64,000 nt of DNA from a virus (IMGVR_UViG_3300005512_000001:277435-341434); one strand, 5' to 3'; numbered from the stretch's first letter, positions 18,241 through 36,162 are shown. Numbers and translations are program-made. The notes: generated from the letters alone by a model not told the origin.

Positions 18241-20118
18241 ATGGCTGGTTATATGGAATTAAATATGATTACTAATAAAAGCAGAATAGAGTGGGATACC
18301 AAAGCCGAGCGTGATAAGTATGTTGCGTTGTTGTCTAAAAAGTTTAATGCCCCTACCATAGCTAATATATTGCGTATAGGGAAGAGAACAGTTTATAGAA
18401 TCCAAGAAGCATTGGATATACAAACATCTCATAGGCCAGCATATTATAGTTTGGATTATAAATCAGAATTACAAATCATAGAATTATATAATAATAAAAT
18501 AGCAACATGCCAAATTGCAGACCAATTTAATATTACACCAGATACTGTACTTAATATAGTTAGGCGTCACGGCAGCATAACTAGAAATTCACGTGAGAGT
18601 TTAAGGCTGGCATTACAATCTGATAAACATAACGATTTCGAATATATTGATAGTGAACAAAAGAGTTATATTGTGGGGCTTATTTGTGCCGATGGTAACA
18701 TAACCGGCAATGTTGTGACTATAGGATTAAAGGATTCTGATTCTAAACTACTTTATGACATACAAAGATTTTTAAATATAGGGTCTGTTAATGTTGTAAA
18801 TAATTCTGGGTTTAAATTAGCTAGATTTAGAATGTGCAAATCGAAAATCGTCGAAGATTTGAAGAATATTGGCATTATCGACTTTAAATCAGATCGCCCT
18901 AACCTAATTAATTCGTTGGATGATAATCTATTTAGAGCTTTTCTACTTGGGTTTTTTGATGGTGATGGTATTCTGTGCAGGAGCCAATCACAATGCGGCT
19001 TTGTTGGCACTAAAAATGTGATGGAATCTATCAATAATAAGATTAATAGCGTACTAGGGATATCATTTAATCTTTTTGAACATGGGTCTATCTATAAATT
19101 AATAACTGGCAATAAACAATATATGTTGAAATTTTTAAAGTGGCTATACCAGGCCGACATCTTCTGTCTAAAGCGAAAAGAGAAATTAGCAAAAGCTTGG
19201 ATTAATAGGTTGTCATATGACTTAAAATGGTTTAATGGCAACAGGTTTTCTGCTGGGAATTTTTCCGTCAGGCCGCCAAGTTTGAGGATTAAGCTGATAA
19301 AAGAAGTTGTTGAGAAGGTAAGTAGCAGATGGATACCACCATCATATACGGCAAATGAGTTGAGAAGCGACCTCAATAAATGTATTGGTGAAAATGTTGA
19401 TGTGCTTAAAAAAGCTAGGCGATATGGCCGTAAATTGATGATTAATTACAACCCACATTTCTGGGATGTTAAGGTGAGGAAGACACCAACTATCCCAGAA
19501 GTATGGACGAAGGCCAGTATCAGAAAATGTATGAATATATTGTCGAACAACAATGGATCGGTTACATTTGAGAGATTGATTCGCGAAATCCAATTCCAGT
19601 TAAAATGCAATGTAGCGTCATTATTTCATCCTGGTTTTACTAGATCGATTTTTAGAAGATTTAACATATCTAAACACATGACAGTATTCGACCCATGTGG
19701 TGGATGGGGCGGTAGGCTGATTGGCGCATATATTGATGGTGTCAATTATATAAGCACCGAGGTTGACAACAACACATATAATGGCCTGGTTGGGATTAAA
19801 AGATTCTTGGGTTCTAACTGCACCATACACAATAAATCATGCTTTGATATTGTGTGGCCAAAATATGATGTTGTATTAACTTCTCCGCCATTCTTCAATA
19901 GTGAAGATTATAGTCAATGGCAATGCCATAAAGATTGGGTTGAGAGATTTGTCAAGCCTTTTTTAGATAGGGTCAATGCGAGATGCATATTGCATCTAAA
20001 TAAAACAACTATGCAAGACTTTGCTAGTATTAGGCAACCGGACGATGTTGTCGAGATTAAAACAAGACCTAATCCAAGAGCTAGCTGGAGTCATGAATAT
20101 TTAGTTGTGTTCAACTGA
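18241..20118 (+). CDS. HTH + LAGLIDADG homing endonuclease fused to amino-DNA methyltransferase
   Basis: YIVGLICADGNI and FLLGFFDGDG; FDPCGGWGGRL (SAM motif I); TSPPFF (motif IV). Confidence 0.85.
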   Translation: MAGYMELNMITNKSRIEWDTKAERDKYVALLSKKFNAPTIANILRIGKRTVYRIQEALDIQTSHRPAYYSLDYKSELQIIELYNNKIATCQIADQFNITPDTVLNIVRRHGSITRNSRESLRLALQSDKHNDFEYIDSEQKSYIVGLICADGNITGNVVTIGLKDSDSKLLYDIQRFLNIGSVNVVNNSGFKLARFRMCKSKIVEDLKNIGIIDFKSDRPNLINSLDDNLFRAFLLGFFDGDGILCRSQSQCGFVGTKNVMESINNKINSVLGISFNLFEHGSIYKLITGNKQYMLKFLKWLYQADIFCLKRKEKLAKAWINRLSYDLKWFNGNRFSAGNFSVRPPSLRIKLIKEVVEKVSSRWIPPSYTANELRSDLNKCIGENVDVLKKARRYGRKLMINYNPHFWDVKVRKTPTIPEVWTKASIRKCMNILSNNNGSVTFERLIREIQFQLKCNVASLFHPGFTRSIFRRFNISKHMTVFDPCGGWGGRLIGAYIDGVNYISTEVDNNTYNGLVGIKRFLGSNCTIHNKSCFDIVWPKYDVVLTSPPFFNSEDYSQWQCHKDWVERFVKPFLDRVNARCILHLNKTTMQDFASIRQPDDVVEIKTRPNPRASWSHEYLVVFN

Positions 20119-20784
20119 ATAATAATATGCATATTTGGGGTCATTCTTTATAGCCTCTTCACCCTCAGGCCATCTTCCCCTAATAATATCACGGGCATAG
20201 CGATATGCATATTCAGGGTCACTCTTTATAGCCTCTTCACCCTCAGGCCATCTTCCTCCAATAACATAATGGGCATAGCGATATACATATTCAGGGTTAT
20301 TCTTTATAGCCTCTTCACCCTCGGCCCATCTTCCCTTAATAATATCATAGGCATAACGATATGTCCATTTAGGGTCATTCTTTATAGCCTCTTCACCCTC
20401 AAGCCATCTTCCTCTAATAATATCACGGGCATAGAAATATGCATATTTAGGGTCACTCTTTATAGCTTCTTCGCCCTCAGGCCATCTTCCTCTAATAACA
20501 TCACAGGCATAATAATATGCATATTCAGGGTCATTCTTTATGGCCTCTTCACCCTCAGGCCATCTTCCCTTAATAATATTACGAGTATAATAATATGCCC
20601 ATCCAGGGTCATTCTTTATAACCTCTTCACCCTCAGGCCATCTTCCCTTAATAATATTACGAGTATAATAATATGCTTGCTCTGCATTGAAGATGCGTAT
20701 TTCCTCTGAGCCGTCGTCATAGCCCACAATGTCTTTAAAATCGGGGTCCTCTAGTCTATCGGGATGTGGCGTTATGATAATCAT
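20101..20784 (-). CDS. 26-aa helical repeat protein, copy B (7 GRW repeats)
   Basis: GRWPEGEEAIKxDPxxAYxYAxDVIx repeats; 78-bp period. Confidence 0.85.
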   Translation of the reverse strand: MIIITPHPDRLEDPDFKDIVGYDDGSEEIRIFNAEQAYYYTRNIIKGRWPEGEEVIKNDPGWAYYYTRNIIKGRWPEGEEAIKNDPEYAYYYACDVIRGRWPEGEEAIKSDPKYAYFYARDIIRGRWLEGEEAIKNDPKWTYRYAYDIIKGRWAEGEEAIKNNPEYVYRYAHYVIGGRWPEGEEAIKSDPEYAYRYARDIIRGRWPEGEEAIKNDPKYAYYYSVEHN

Positions 20785-21551
20785 CGCACCGTCTTGTGTC
20801 TTCCCTCATAGTGATATGCATATTCAGGGCTACTCTTTATAACCTCTTCACCCTCAGGCCATCTTCCTCTAATAATGTCACGGGCATAATAATATGCCCA
20901 TTTAGGGTCACTCTTTATAGCCTCTTCACCCTCAAGCCATCTTCCCTTAATAACATTACAGGCATAACAATATGTATATTCAGGGTCACTCTTTATAGCC
21001 TCTTCACCCTCAAGCCATCTTCCCTTAATAACATCGCAAGCATAATAATATGCATATTCAGGGTCATTCTTTATGGCCTCTTCACCCTCAGGCCATCTTC
21101 CCTTAATAACATCACAGGCATAGTAATGTGCCCATTTAGGGTCATTCTTTATGGCCTCTTCACCTTCAGGCCATCTTCCCTTAATAACATCACAGGCATA
21201 GAAATATGCATATTTAGGGTCACTCTTTATAGCCTCTTCGCCCTCAGGCCATCTTCCCTTAATAACATTACAGGCATAAGAATATGCCCATCCAGGGTCA
21301 CTCTTTATAGCCTCTTCACCCTCAGGCCATCTTCCCCTAATAACATCACGGGCATAGCGATATGCCCATCCAGGGTCATTCTTTATGGCCTCTTCACCCT
21401 CGGCCCATCTTCCTCTAATAACATAATGGGCATAGCAATATGCTTGCTTTACATTGAAGATACGTATTTCCTCTGAGCCGTCGTCATAGCCCACAATGTC
21501 TTTAAAATCGGGGTCCTCTAGTCTATCGGGATGTGGCGTTATGATAATCAT
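20781..21551 (-). CDS. 26-aa helical repeat protein, copy A (8 GRW repeats)
   Basis: Same repeat; first 33 aa identical to copy B. Confidence 0.85.
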   Translation of the reverse strand: MIIITPHPDRLEDPDFKDIVGYDDGSEEIRIFNVKQAYCYAHYVIRGRWAEGEEAIKNDPGWAYRYARDVIRGRWPEGEEAIKSDPGWAYSYACNVIKGRWPEGEEAIKSDPKYAYFYACDVIKGRWPEGEEAIKNDPKWAHYYACDVIKGRWPEGEEAIKNDPEYAYYYACDVIKGRWLEGEEAIKSDPEYTYCYACNVIKGRWLEGEEAIKSDPKWAYYYARDIIRGRWPEGEEVIKSSPEYAYHYEGRHKTVR

Positions 21552-33754: not shown

Positions 33755-35065
33755 GTGATGAGGACGAATGTAAAGAACAAGTACGCCGAGAAGACGCACG
33801 AGGGTGCACCTGCTGCAAGGTTGAACGCCGAACAGGAATTGCGAAGGTCTGTTATGTCGTGCCTTTTGTGGGAGAGAACCTTCTACGAGAATGGCGTGGG
33901 CATCGCAGAGCGGATCGCTGATTTAGTGCCGCACGTAGCACCAGAAAAGGTCGCTGCGATGGCAATCGAGGCACGTAGCGATATGAACTTGCGACACGCC
34001 CCGTTGTGGTTGGTCCGTTCGATGGCGGCTACCAAGACGCACAGGAGTTTGGTCGCTGATACGCTGGAAGCAGTAATTCAGCGTCCAGACGAACTGACTG
34101 AGTTCTTGTCTCTGTACTGGAATGGCAAGAAGACACCGCTTGCGGCTCAGGTCAAGAAGGGATTAGCAAGAGCATTCCGTAAGTTCGACGCTTATCGGTT
34201 GGCGAAGTACAATAGGGACAATGCCATCAAGCTTCGCGATGTCCTGTTCCTGACTCACGCCAAGCCAAAGGATGCCGAGCAGGCTGCAGTTTGGAAGAAG
34301 CTGGTCGATGGCACCTTGGAAGCCCCAGATACTTGGGAAGTTGCACTTTCGAGTGGTGCGGATAAGCAAGGTTCTTGGACCAGATTGCTTGAGGAAGGGA
34401 AGCTTGGTGCCTTTGCGTTGCTGAGGAACTTACGCAATATGCAGAAAGCAGATGTCGATGAGGACTTAATCAAAGACGCATTGGCCAAGGCTGATGTTTC
34501 CAGGATTTTGCCATTCCGATTCATCGCAGCTGCTCGTTATGCACCAGATTTTGAACCTGCTCTTGAGAAGGCGTTATTCAGGAGCTTGGAATCTCAGAAG
34601 CTTGTTGGTAAGACCATCGTATTGGTCGATGTTTCTGGTTCTATGAACTGGGAGCTTAGTTCGAAGTCCGATATGTTACGGATGGACGCGGCCTGCGGTC
34701 TTGCGATGGTATTGAGGGAATTGTGCGACGATATTAAAGTGTTCAGTTTCTCAACCCGCACTGCCAAGGTACCGGCCCGCAGAGGTTTTGCGCTACGTGA
34801 TGCAATCGTAAGGTCGCAGCGGCATAGCGGAACTTATCTTGGTGGGGCAGTTGACACCGCCAATAAAGAGAAGTACGACCGATTGGTGGTAATCACGGAT
34901 GAGCAGTCGCACGATGTTGTGCCATCGCCAAAGAGCCGTGGATACATGATTAATGTTTCGTCGGACAAAAATGGAGTTGGATACGGTGATTGGACTCGCA
35001 TTACCGGATGGAGCGAAGCGGTTGTGCGATATGTAATGGAACTTGAAAACGCCAAGTTCGTGTAG
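33755..35065 (+). CDS. rsr: Ro60/Rsr RNA-binding protein (TROVE + vWA domains)
   Basis: THEGAPA, LLWERTFYE, QRPDELTE, FDAYRLAKYNR, LRDVLFLTH, TWEVALS, ALLRNLRN, LPFRF; MIDAS DVSGSM; ITDEQ; ITGWSE. Confidence 0.95.
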   Translation: MMRTNVKNKYAEKTHEGAPAARLNAEQELRRSVMSCLLWERTFYENGVGIAERIADLVPHVAPEKVAAMAIEARSDMNLRHAPLWLVRSMAATKTHRSLVADTLEAVIQRPDELTEFLSLYWNGKKTPLAAQVKKGLARAFRKFDAYRLAKYNRDNAIKLRDVLFLTHAKPKDAEQAAVWKKLVDGTLEAPDTWEVALSSGADKQGSWTRLLEEGKLGAFALLRNLRNMQKADVDEDLIKDALAKADVSRILPFRFIAAARYAPDFEPALEKALFRSLESQKLVGKTIVLVDVSGSMNWELSSKSDMLRMDAACGLAMVLRELCDDIKVFSFSTRTAKVPARRGFALRDAIVRSQRHSGTYLGGAVDTANKEKYDRLVVITDEQSHDVVPSPKSRGYMINVSSDKNGVGYGDWTRITGWSEAVVRYVMELENAKFV

Positions 35066-35070
35066 TATTT

Positions 35071-35331
35071 GACAATTAGTAGAGGCGACCGACGCTTAAG
35101 TCGGTAGGACGTGCTGTGAGGCAGCGACAGGTAGGTACGCCTGTTACACTACCTCCGACTCCATCAACGCAGATGGTTTAGGGAGGGAGCGAAAAGACCC
35201 GTAAAGGGAGACACAGCCAGGTCTGTCAGTCAGGGATGGGTGAGTATGACACCCACACAGTACCTTATGGCTTAGACAGTAGGGAATGCGTTACCCGAGA
35301 TCCCGATAAAGCTGCCCATCTATTAGTTGTC
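35071..35331 (+). ncRNA. Unclassified ~260-nt structured RNA candidate
   Basis: 13-bp closing stem GACAATTAGTAGA/TCTATTAGTTGTC; multiple hairpins; complementary loops AACGCA/TGCGTT. Confidence 0.65.
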
Positions 35332-35349
35332 GCTAAATGGAGAGTTGTC

Positions 35350-35543
35350 ATGAACAAAGACGAGTTTCACAAAAGACAGCAGGGTTATCGCTTCTGGTTA
35401 GTATTGGGCGGTATGGCGGCTTCAATTTTGGGCTTGGAAGATATGGAGTTCGGCTTGTGCTAGGTTGGATTTCGATTTTCCTGGCCACTGTTGATTTGGA
35501 CTACGTATTGAGTTTGTCTACGAAGCAAAACGCAGAACAATGA
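35350..35543 (+). pseudogene. Frameshifted small membrane protein
   Basis: RBS + MNKDEF..ILGL continues as GRYGVRLVLGW.. in a shifted frame near 35435. Confidence 0.4.
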
Positions 35544-35547
35544 TATT

Positions 35548-35684
35548 CCAACGATGGTGTAGGTGACAGTTACTTCGATTTAGGATCGAGTGGTTGTGGG
35601 TTCGAATCCCACCCGCCCTTAATCGGGGCGGTAGCTCAATTGGCAGAGCGCTAAAACTTTCTGTTGCCGCCTGTTCCTCGTTGG
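35548..35684 (+). ncRNA. Y RNA-like unit 1: permuted tRNA with TAG anticodon loop
   Basis: CCAACGA/TCGTTGG and GGTGACAG/CTGTTGCC stems; anticodon arm, T arm, loop-closed acceptor, D arm. Confidence 0.85.
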
Positions 35685-35697
35685 TACTTTTGAGATT

Positions 35698-35764
35698 AAC
35701 CGATGGTGAAGAATACGGCTACTTCTATTTAAGAACCAAACCCGTGTTCGCTTGTTCCTCGGTT
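35698..35764 (+). ncRNA. Y RNA-like unit 2: minimal, Ro-binding stem only
   Basis: AACCGA/TCGGTT and GAATACGG/CCGTGTTC stems with conserved GGTGAAG / GCTTGTTCC loop. Confidence 0.8.
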
Positions 35765-35776
35765 TTTCATAAAGTT

Positions 35777-35863
35777 GGTTGATGGTGTAGGAATCGGTTA
35801 CTTCTACCAAAACCGGCCTCAAAAGCTGGTACTTGAAAAACCGATTTCGCATGTTCCTCAACC
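35777..35863 (+). ncRNA. Y RNA-like unit 3: lone anticodon-like hairpin (CAA)
   Basis: GGTTGA/TCAACC and GGAATCGGTT/AACCGATTTC stems; ACCGGC-CTCAAAA-GCTGGT. Confidence 0.8.
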
Positions 35864-35870
35864 TACAATC

Positions 35871-36011
35871 ATAGCTGATGGTGTAGGATACGGTTACTTC
35901 GACTTGTAATCGAGAGGTTGCGGGTTCGAATCCCGTCCATTTGTCGAGAGACATTTGGTAGCTCAACTGGTAGAGCGCTAAAATTTCCGTTTCCGCTTGT
36001 TCCTCGGCTAT
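35871..36011 (+). ncRNA. Y RNA-like unit 4: permuted tRNA with TGT anticodon loop
   Basis: ATAGCTGA/TCGGCTAT stem; TTCGA-CTTGTAA-TCGAG; T arm; GAGA-capped acceptor; D arm. Confidence 0.85.
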
Positions 36012-36018
36012 TCATTAT

Positions 36019-36162
36019 TTAGTTGATGGTGTAGAGAACAGTTACTTCTATAAAACGGTAGGTTACAGGTTTCGAGCCCTGTCCGCCTCAATGAGGCGGT
36101 AGCTCAACTGGAAGAGCAATCGTGGCATAAGCCAAGTCTGTTTTCGCCTGTTCCTCAACTAA
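36019..36162 (+). ncRNA. Y RNA-like unit 5: T/acceptor/D tRNA-like module
   Basis: TTAGTTGA/TCAACTAA and GAGAACAG/CTGTTTTC stems; CCGCCTC-AAT-GAGGCGG acceptor; D arm. Confidence 0.85.

Follow-up and report, generated by a model that had tools for sequence, protein, structure and literature searches.

A probable conserved structured RNA behind the Ro60 gene of related, uncultivated jumbo phages

Ro60 and Y RNAs form a conserved RNA-surveillance particle. Characterized Y RNAs are 80-130 nt long, and Y RNAs have a GNCGAA-type Ro-binding motif in their terminal stem (Chen et al. 2014, PMC4201824). The described bacterial and phage examples (YrlA/YrlB and Yrn1, RF02553, PMC4201824; Yrl1 and Yrl2 of Thermus phage phiLo, PMC12135203) adjoin the Ro60 gene on its own strand, and their 5' and 3' ends pair as a terminal stem around a larger internal module. 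The role of Ro60 in phages is only beginning to be studied, with work on the phiLo Ro60 and its host's PNPase (PMC12135203), and with a Ro60-like anti-defence gene in Bas63 (PMC11482910). Here we describe an element of 263 nt (35070-35332, + strand) that lies directly behind a phage Ro60 gene, in a 64,000-nt stretch of viral DNA (IMGVR_UViG_3300005512_000001:277435-341434). This stretch, hereafter the window, is the final 64 kb of a 341,434-bp virus record bearing direct terminal repeats. Like the Y RNAs, the element adjoins Ro60 on the same strand and has paired ends around a larger module, and it shares its locus with bona fide Y-like RNAs. Unlike them, it is about 262 nt instead of 80-130 nt, it has no tRNA-like domain, its stem covaries instead of keeping a conserved Ro-binding sequence, and it was not found beside other Ro60 genes, including a 76% relative. 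We are confident, from comparing it with a diverged homolog, that 35070-35332 is a real conserved structured RNA.

The element was first noticed from the sequence alone, as a tertiary-folded noncoding RNA or ribozyme that might be a further partner of Ro60, and this original prediction pointed to Rfam and to the surroundings of other TROVE genes as the places to check. The second of these gave a homolog. A covariance model built from the window's element as a single sequence (R1) finds it at 176 bits (E 3e-52), over the full length, right behind the stop codon of a Ro60 that is 83% identical to this phage's. The homolog (284 nt, which is the covariance-model match including short flanks) is on three contigs from three different samples (L093, L094, and L095), and the three copies are identical. 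Samples that contain the relatives are JGI 3300024262, JGI 3300009149, and ENA ERZ27249621. In L094, synteny runs at about 75% nucleotide identity through Ro60, the element, a small open reading frame (ORF), five Y-like units, and a tRNA-like gene. At the 4-fold degenerate sites of Ro60, 81/160 (50.6%) differ between the two phages, while 26% of the aligned positions of the element differ. Within the element, the stems vary and compensate while the loops and junctions stay invariant. The invariant runs are of 20 nt (35104-23), 12 nt (35130-41), 10 nt (35163-72), 12 nt (35260-71), 29 nt (35273-35301), and 9 nt (35303-11). In L093 (1891-2005) and L094 (around 1910-2050), we also see a 69-nt tandem duplication that spans the 3' end of the element, the Shine-Dalgarno (SD) sequence, and 18 nt at the start of the small ORF; L095 has a single copy.

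If the structure that was predicted from the window only is laid over the homolog, about 82% of its 80 pairs are kept, as compared to about 40% if the partners are slid by 1-3 columns. There are six double compensatory changes, in P1, P2 (two), P4, P5, and P5a (Table 1). Pairs that were predicted independently in both sequences (n = 46, with a probability of at least 0.3 in each) include 5 that are compensatory and 8 that are wobble compatible, and none is disrupted. The RNAalifold consensus contains 70 pairs, 11 of them compensatory and none broken; it adds two helices, with one compensatory pair each, at 35120-25/35311-16 and 35223-35/35263-79. So the tertiary-folded noncoding RNA of the original prediction is supported, within the limits of sequence analysis, by the compensatory changes and by loops and junctions that stay invariant while neutral sites have diverged by about 50%.

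The fold is also more stable than expected. The 271-nt stretch with the element folds at -95.7 kcal/mol (z score of -3.7), and 0/200 shuffles were as good; the reverse complement is weaker (z of -2.1). We scanned 271-nt segments at a 90-nt step from the Ro60 gene to past the Y-like array, and only the segment that is exactly in register stands out, with a z of -4.7. Its two neighbors have z of -1.2 and -0.8, the span given for neighboring segments is -0.7 to -1.4, and segments within the Ro60 coding sequence range from +0.8 to -1.8. Because stability peaks only in the exact register, both ends are needed, as they would be for a discrete unit. Taken by itself, the terminal helix is marginal: 13/200 shuffles (6.5%, with all positions tried) have an equally stable one. 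Downstream of the Ro60 genes of Acidobacteriota, there is a terminator and no comparable fold (z of -1.1).

As judged by our searches, the element is an RNA family that was not previously catalogued, with two distinct members, both in related uncultivated jumbo phages. Rfam 15 has nothing in the element at the gathering score (whole window) or at E <= 10 (34900-35900, with a 1-kb search space), nor at E <= 10 in the homolog, so the original prediction was right that this is not a known family. The only Rfam match that overlaps the element at E <= 10 is a chance match to HIV-1_SD (15 bits, E 9.9). Also as predicted, RNase P, the signal recognition particle (SRP) RNA, transfer-messenger RNA (tmRNA), and 6S RNA gave no match at E <= 10, and no Rfam model matched for group I/II introns, self-cleaving ribozymes, riboswitches, ROOL/GOLLD, or packaging RNA (pRNA); the suggestion of a ribozyme finds no support in any ribozyme family. 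By-eye comparisons to the conserved regions of RNase P, to SRP helix 8, and to the hammerhead and twister cores were rejected, as no model matched. A word from the GTPase centre of 23S rRNA, UGGCUUAGA, was rejected as well: no model matched and its GGCUUA is not kept in the homolog. We did not find a catalogue entry or a publication that describes the element.

Searches for further members also came back empty. With blastn, no sequence homolog came up among GenBank phages, plasmids, and E. coli genomes, nor did blastn or nhmmer find one at 65 Ro60 loci taken from IMG/VR and JGI metagenomes. There was also none in the whole records of CcrColossus, Bambus, and RsoM2USA and one IMG/VR contig, or in the two sets of Acidobacteriota genomes that we searched, of four and of 151 genomes. 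R1 gave only hairpin noise, below 11 bits, against the 65 Ro60 loci and, with filters off, against 4 Acidobacteriota and 5 phage loci. A two-sequence model (R2) found no further member among 71 Ro60 loci, and four exact or gapped patterns had no match in IMG/VR. As for targets in trans, complementarity to the phage genome was no better than that of chance 13-mers. We rejected a DNA-level inverted repeat or miniature inverted-repeat transposable element because the arms keep G.U pairs and covary as RNA does. We also rejected a coding remnant of a longer Ro60, because the relatives' Ro60 proteins end at the same place and because there is no ORF of at least 30 amino acids in 35066-35235 on either strand.

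Most of the helices that were originally proposed turned up in the minimum free energy (MFE) structure. The 13-bp closing helix is there and is extended to 14 bp by U35070.G35332; its core (35071-35083/35319-35331) has 11 Watson-Crick and 2 G.U pairs. Those two G.U pairs would form only in a + strand transcript, which favors the + strand. In the homolog, 11 bp of P1 are retained (35071-81/35321-31), with U35077-A35325 replaced by C-G and four wobble-compatible single changes, so the helix covaries while differing in sequence at 5/11 pairs. The hairpins ACCGAC/GUCGGU, GACAGGU/GCCUGUU, CCAUC/GAUGG, and CCC-GUAAA-GGG are in the MFE structure with probabilities of 0.92-1.0, and so is the long-range pairing GCUGUG/CACAGC. 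GGGUG/CACCC is present but weaker (probability of 0.43), and the long-range CUGUC/GACAG is in the two-sequence consensus but not in the MFE structure. Compensatory changes in the homolog include C35090-G35103 to U-A and A35092-U35101 to G-C in P2, A35129-U35142 to G-C in P4, and C35162-G35175 to U-A in P5a; P5 is retained with a shift of register. P6 has a counterpart, UCCU/AGGA, with one compensatory pair in the consensus. The 5' strand of P3 sits within the 20-nt invariant run 35104-35123, so there is no evidence from covariation for it.

The two helices that RNAalifold adds are candidates for a pseudoknot or an alternative state, because they are energetically costly and the first of them, GGCAGC/GCUGCC, crosses P3. 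In the homolog, G35124-C35312 of this helix is A-U; a competing pairing is GGCG 35084-87 with UGCC 35313-16. The second, 35223-35/35263-79, contains CUGUC/GACAG, and its A35228-U35272 is G-C in the homolog. Without refolding, the RNAalifold consensus falls short of the MFE by about 26-36 kcal/mol in each of the two sequences. As a nested fold, the 3' domain (35229-35307) is poorly defined, with probabilities of 0.07-0.6. Its hairpin P8 varies in length, with about 14 nt more in the homolog. The GGGA/UCCC-closed hairpin lies within the 29-nt invariant run 35273-35301, and its closing stem has one G-C to G.U change.

Table 1. Parts of the element and neighboring features in the window
Feature	Position	Strand	Basis
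Ro60 gene (TROVE and vWA), 436 amino acids	33755..35065	+	Pfam TROVE 5.5e-18, vWA_Ro60
P1, 5' strand of terminal helix, pairs with 35319-35332	35070..35083	+	mean pair probability 0.96
P2, hairpin of 6 bp, loop GCUUAA	35088..35105	+	pair probability 0.99
P3, 5' strand, pairs with 35212-35224	35107..35118	+	predicted independently in both sequences, probability 0.4-0.98
GGCAGC, candidate long-range (pseudoknot-type) helix with GCUGCC 35311-35316	35120..35125	+	RNAalifold consensus
P4, hairpin of 7 bp, invariant hexaloop AGGUAC 35133-35138	35126..35145	+	pair probability 0.94
P5 (35152-56/35182-86) around P5a (35161-65/35172-76), invariant hexaloop AACGCA 35166-35171	35152..35186	+	probability 0.99-1.0
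P6, hairpin CCC-GUAAA-GGG	35198..35208	+	pair probability 0.92
P3, 3' strand	35212..35224	+	folding of both sequences
3' domain: candidate helix 35223-35/35263-79, variable hairpin P8 35238-54, GUACCU 35260-65	35223..35279	+	two-sequence consensus
GGGA/UCCC-closed hairpin (GGGA 35282-85, UCCC 35301-04), loop with UGCGUU 35287-35292	35282..35304	+	two-sequence consensus
P1, 3' strand, pairs with 35070-35083	35319..35332	+	pair probability, homolog conservation
Small conserved hydrophobic ORF, 68 amino acids from ATG 35337	35337..35543	+	homolog ORF comparison
Five Y-RNA-like units with common scaffold	35548..36162	+	exact GATGGTGWAG and GCNTGTTCCTC, five copies each

Two hexaloops have exact complements elsewhere in the element. 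The loop of P5a, AACGCA (35166-71), is complementary to UGCGUU (35287-92), as originally proposed, and it is 100% unpaired in the ensemble. The proposal of two kissing hairpin loops holds only in part: the complementarity is exact, but the GGG/CCC hairpin around UGCGUU is absent from the MFE structure, in which UGCGUU is outside any hairpin loop. Freeing the two 6-mers would cost 2.5 kcal/mol, as compared to about -5.9 kcal/mol for their duplex. A pair that the original prediction missed is the whole hexaloop of P4, AGGUAC (35133-38), with GUACCU (35260-65). Both hexaloops and both complements fall inside invariant runs. For AACGCA/UGCGUU, invariance on both sides is consistent with a tertiary contact, yet it offers no covariation test of one. 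One hairpin loop with an exact 6-nt complement is not significant on its own, since 21% of shuffles show the same; two such loops were seen in 2.9% of 1000 shuffles. Separately, an 8-mer that includes the P5a loop, AACGCAGA (35166-35173), recurs at 35529-35536, at the 3' end of the small ORF and just upstream of the first Y-like unit.

The element adjoins Ro60 on the same strand in both phages, as a Y RNA would, and begins 4-5 nt downstream of the stop codon (TAG 35063-35065 in the window). We rejected its identification as a Y RNA, since it is about twice as long, lacks a tRNA-like module and a conserved stem sequence, and was absent at the remaining Ro60 loci that were searched. More precisely, neither 35066-35336 nor the homolog has a YrlA or tRNA match (cmscan, E <= 10), and, reading from the sequence, the GNCGAA-like words in the element are imperfect only. 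In the Y-like array, one unit has a sub-threshold YrlA match (42.9 bits, 35589-35652). GATGGTGWAG and GCNTGTTCCTC are exact in both phages (L094 2236-2905), and the stems between them differ; the exact scaffold words GAUGGUGWAG ... GCNUGUUCCUC occur only in the five units, at 35553-36156, and not in the element. Acidobacteriota and soil-metagenome Ro60 genes (L089 1287-1909; L090, L030, L033) have up to four sub-threshold YrlA-like matches upstream (32-43 bits), so that the Y-like array is downstream of Ro60 in this phage and upstream in those loci. Brevundimonas phage Bambus (ON529853.1, L010 6789-7046) has a permuted tmRNA (RF04321, 57.9 bits, above the gathering score) that is 2.4 kb downstream of Ro60 and beside a tRNA; the annotation table shown for that record does not list it.

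On its other side, the element is directly upstream of, and co-oriented with, a small conserved ORF, which the original prediction did not include and which makes a cis-regulatory reading conceivable. P1 ends at 35332, and the ORF begins 5-18 nt past the element, either at ATG 35337 or, in another frame (35350-35463), at ATG 35350 with the SD sequence GGAGAG 35338-43. Given these tight flanks, the stretch from the Ro60 stop to the ORF is filled by the element in both phages. The core of the encoded protein is identical to a 64-amino-acid ORF of L095 at 38/43 positions, with 15 synonymous codon differences, so this is a real gene under purifying selection. Only one homolog of the protein was found among 5.8 billion proteins, and there was no Pfam or PHROG match. 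The N-terminus in the relatives, MDADKFHE, matches the frame of ATG 35350 (MNKDEFHK), and ATG 35337 is in frame with the conserved core, which implies a 1-nt frame difference in the window near the A-run at about 35368-35380. An assembly error, a frameshift, or a change of start to ATG 35337 could account for this difference. Two copies of the 7-mer AGUUGUC are present at a distance of 18 nt, one at the end of the 3' strand of P1 (35325-31) and the other between the SD sequence and ATG 35350 (35343-49); both are UUGUU in the homolog. Because of this repeat, the 5' strand of P1 could pair with either copy. The 8-bp alternative (35070-77/35343-50) is possible in both phages and is weak, and folds that include the flanks disagree between the two sequences. 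No terminator was found, and no terminator-like U tract behind P1.

The phage genome is 42% G+C, and the window contains 41 tRNA genes. Among GenBank phages, nothing is more than 27% identical to its DNA polymerase III alpha, so the phage has no close cultured relative; a search with this protein did not find an IMG/VR locus. The Ro60 protein is 52-55% identical to those of Caulobacter, Brevundimonas, Ralstonia, and Xanthomonas phages and about 58% identical to chromosomal Ro60 of Acidobacteriota; its closest relatives, from a protein search of a 5.8-billion-sequence collection, are metagenomic (83% and 76% identity). G+C content rises to about 50-55% across Ro60 and the element (33755-35336), versus 42% genome wide, which is consistent with a donor of higher G+C or with constraints from RNA structure. 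Elsewhere in the window, on the minus strand at 20157-21401, GAGGGTGAAG repeats every 78 nt, in about 15 copies that span the ORFs at 20101-20784 and 20781-21551; this array is a 26-codon tandem repeat.

What might the element do? Our tentative preference is for a stable noncoding RNA of the Ro60/Y-RNA operon that binds a protein or serves as a scaffold and that is not a Y RNA. Ro60, the element, the small ORF, and the five Y-like RNAs would be transcribed as one + strand unit, because they share a strand, are separated by gaps of 4-5 nt, and show no promoter or terminator. (The sequence TTGACA at 35069-74 was rejected as a sigma-70 promoter, as it has no -10 element.) The hexaloops of P4 and P5a would dock on the invariant single-stranded segments 35260-65 and 35287-92, within one molecule or between molecules, and this docking would give a compact tertiary fold. 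Within the RNA-surveillance module, the element would then work as a stable noncoding RNA that most likely binds a protein or provides a scaffold, without using the Y-RNA mode of Ro60 binding. Several observations weigh against this proposal. With just two distinct sequences, covariation amounts to a count rather than a statistical test, and the consensus structure is judged on the very pair of sequences that produced it. For both sequences, the consensus that includes the covarying long-range helices still lies 14-21 kcal/mol above the nested MFE after constrained refolding. The 3' domain is ambiguous, with rival helices competing for 35233-35, 35263-65, and 35311-16, and covariation bears on neither of the loop contacts, as all four segments are invariant. 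What links the element to Ro60 is adjacency only, and the Y-type scaffold is absent. Also, the element was not found beside about 70 other Ro60 genes that were searched, and the locus of the 76%-identical Ro60 (L091) lacks it. That locus looks rearranged downstream of Ro60, and at L091 6371-6440 the 5' scaffold of a Y-like unit (GATGGTGTAG ... TTACTTCGA) lies 13 nt behind the Ro60 stop, with no matching 3' scaffold word. Finally, the tight spacing to the small ORF would suit a cis-acting role equally well.

Such a role is the rival that we take most seriously, even though we consider it somewhat less likely than the operon RNA. The element would be a leader of the small ORF, either a riboswitch-like sensor or a translational operator, in which the core binds a ligand or protein and P1 sets access to the start. 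Its architecture is typical of aptamers (a multi-helix core closed by P1, invariant junctions, and variable peripheral stems), it spans the full gap from the Ro60 stop to an ORF under purifying selection in both phages, and the repeat of AGUUGUC between the SD sequence and ATG 35350 is kept as UUGUU in the homolog. However, P1 covers neither the SD sequence nor the start codon, the alternative helix has 7-8 bp versus 14, and no conserved sequestering structure was found when folding with the flanks. No riboswitch family matched, and at 262 nt with at least 9 helices the element is at the upper end of the size range of riboswitches. The element and the small ORF occur together and are both missing from L091, but a single deletion can account for this joint absence, and the rest of the neighborhood is RNA genes. 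We give rather less credence to the more ambitious idea that giant phages carry a new class of compact, pseudoknotted functional RNAs of which the element is the first known. It could then be a new ribozyme or a ligand sensor, or else it could multimerize hand in hand (as in pRNA or ROOL/GOLLD) through its two invariant hexaloop-receptor pairs and work with the phage Ro60/Y-RNA system during infection.

We doubt that the element is an RNA-processing or stability element, which would protect the 3' end of the Ro60 mRNA or be cut by a nuclease or by itself to split the transcript. It does start 4-5 nt behind the Ro60 stop, upstream of RNAs that need to be excised from a longer transcript, and its long terminal helix is a plausible substrate for a double-strand nuclease. 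But neither protection nor nuclease targeting by a hairpin calls for invariant single-stranded runs of 29 nt or for a pair of conserved loop complements. In addition, none of the self-cleaving ribozyme families gave a match at E <= 10, and P1 is not followed by a terminator-like U tract. It is even less probable that this is an oversized Y RNA, the sixth of the locus's Y-like set, with Ro60 bound at the terminal stem. The terminal stem around a large "cargo" and the position beside Ro60 on the same strand would fit, and there are near-matches to the scaffold, GAUGGUUUAG at 35172-81 and GCCUGUUACAC at 35139-49, but these are misordered and misplaced and the first is not kept in the homolog. Moreover, P1 covaries, in contrast to the scaffold words of the five Y-like units, which are retained in both phages; the element has no tRNA-like module and no YrlA match and is twice as long as the 80-130 nt of Y RNAs (PMC4201824); and it is absent from L091 and from all of the other Ro60 loci that we searched. 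Of the originally suggested partnership with Ro60, the adjacency stands; the element lacks the Y-unit scaffold, its P1 covaries, and the L091 locus is without it. Least probable of all, and by our reckoning very much so, is a chance fold or a non-functional remnant. This would be in keeping with the terminal helix (p of about 0.065), with the single loop complement (21% of shuffles), and with a presence in one lineage only. It does not fit with a divergence only half of that at neutral sites, with the 20- and 29-nt stretches that are invariant, with compensation in five or more helices and no change that disrupts a shared helix, or with a z peak in the exact register.

If the element is a stable RNA of the Ro60 operon, then this operon adds to its five Y-like RNAs a second, much larger RNA, one of complex fold that clearly evolves under purifying selection. 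Should it bind Ro60 or another factor, the set of RNAs that are used by such particles would be wider; should it sense a ligand or catalyze a reaction, it would represent a new class of functional RNA. Its rarity (two distinct sequences, both from uncultivated phages) leaves its general importance unproven. On the other hand, its length of about 262 nt is well suited to direct probing, to binding assays, and to cryo-electron microscopy.

Apart from the Y RNAs, three kinds of known RNAs resemble the element. Large riboswitch aptamers, such as those for lysine and cobalamin, have a multi-way junction closed by P1, a conserved core, variable peripheral stems, and loop-loop contacts. The element is likewise closed by P1, has a candidate loop contact, and lies directly upstream of an ORF. 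It differs in that it has no family match and no recognizable expression platform, and in that the downstream gene encodes a hydrophobic protein of 64-68 amino acids. In phi29-type pRNA, the 5' and 3' ends form a terminal helix, and molecules join hand in hand through two loops that have complementary partners. The resemblance is an analogy only, as the element has no Rfam match and is in an RNA-metabolism locus rather than near packaging genes, and as each of its loops would pair with an internal strand and not with the other loop. ROOL/GOLLD-type RNAs are about 580-800 nt long, versus 262 nt for the element, which has no Rfam match to these, to raiA, or to OLE, and which has two known members. 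Nevertheless, ROOL, GOLLD, raiA, and OLE are, like the element, complex multi-helix RNAs that are orphans as to function (PMC5737381; 10.1101/2024.12.08.627333). Also, the element is phage-borne and in a tRNA-rich region, as ROOL and GOLLD often are, and its conserved loops could make RNA-RNA contacts.
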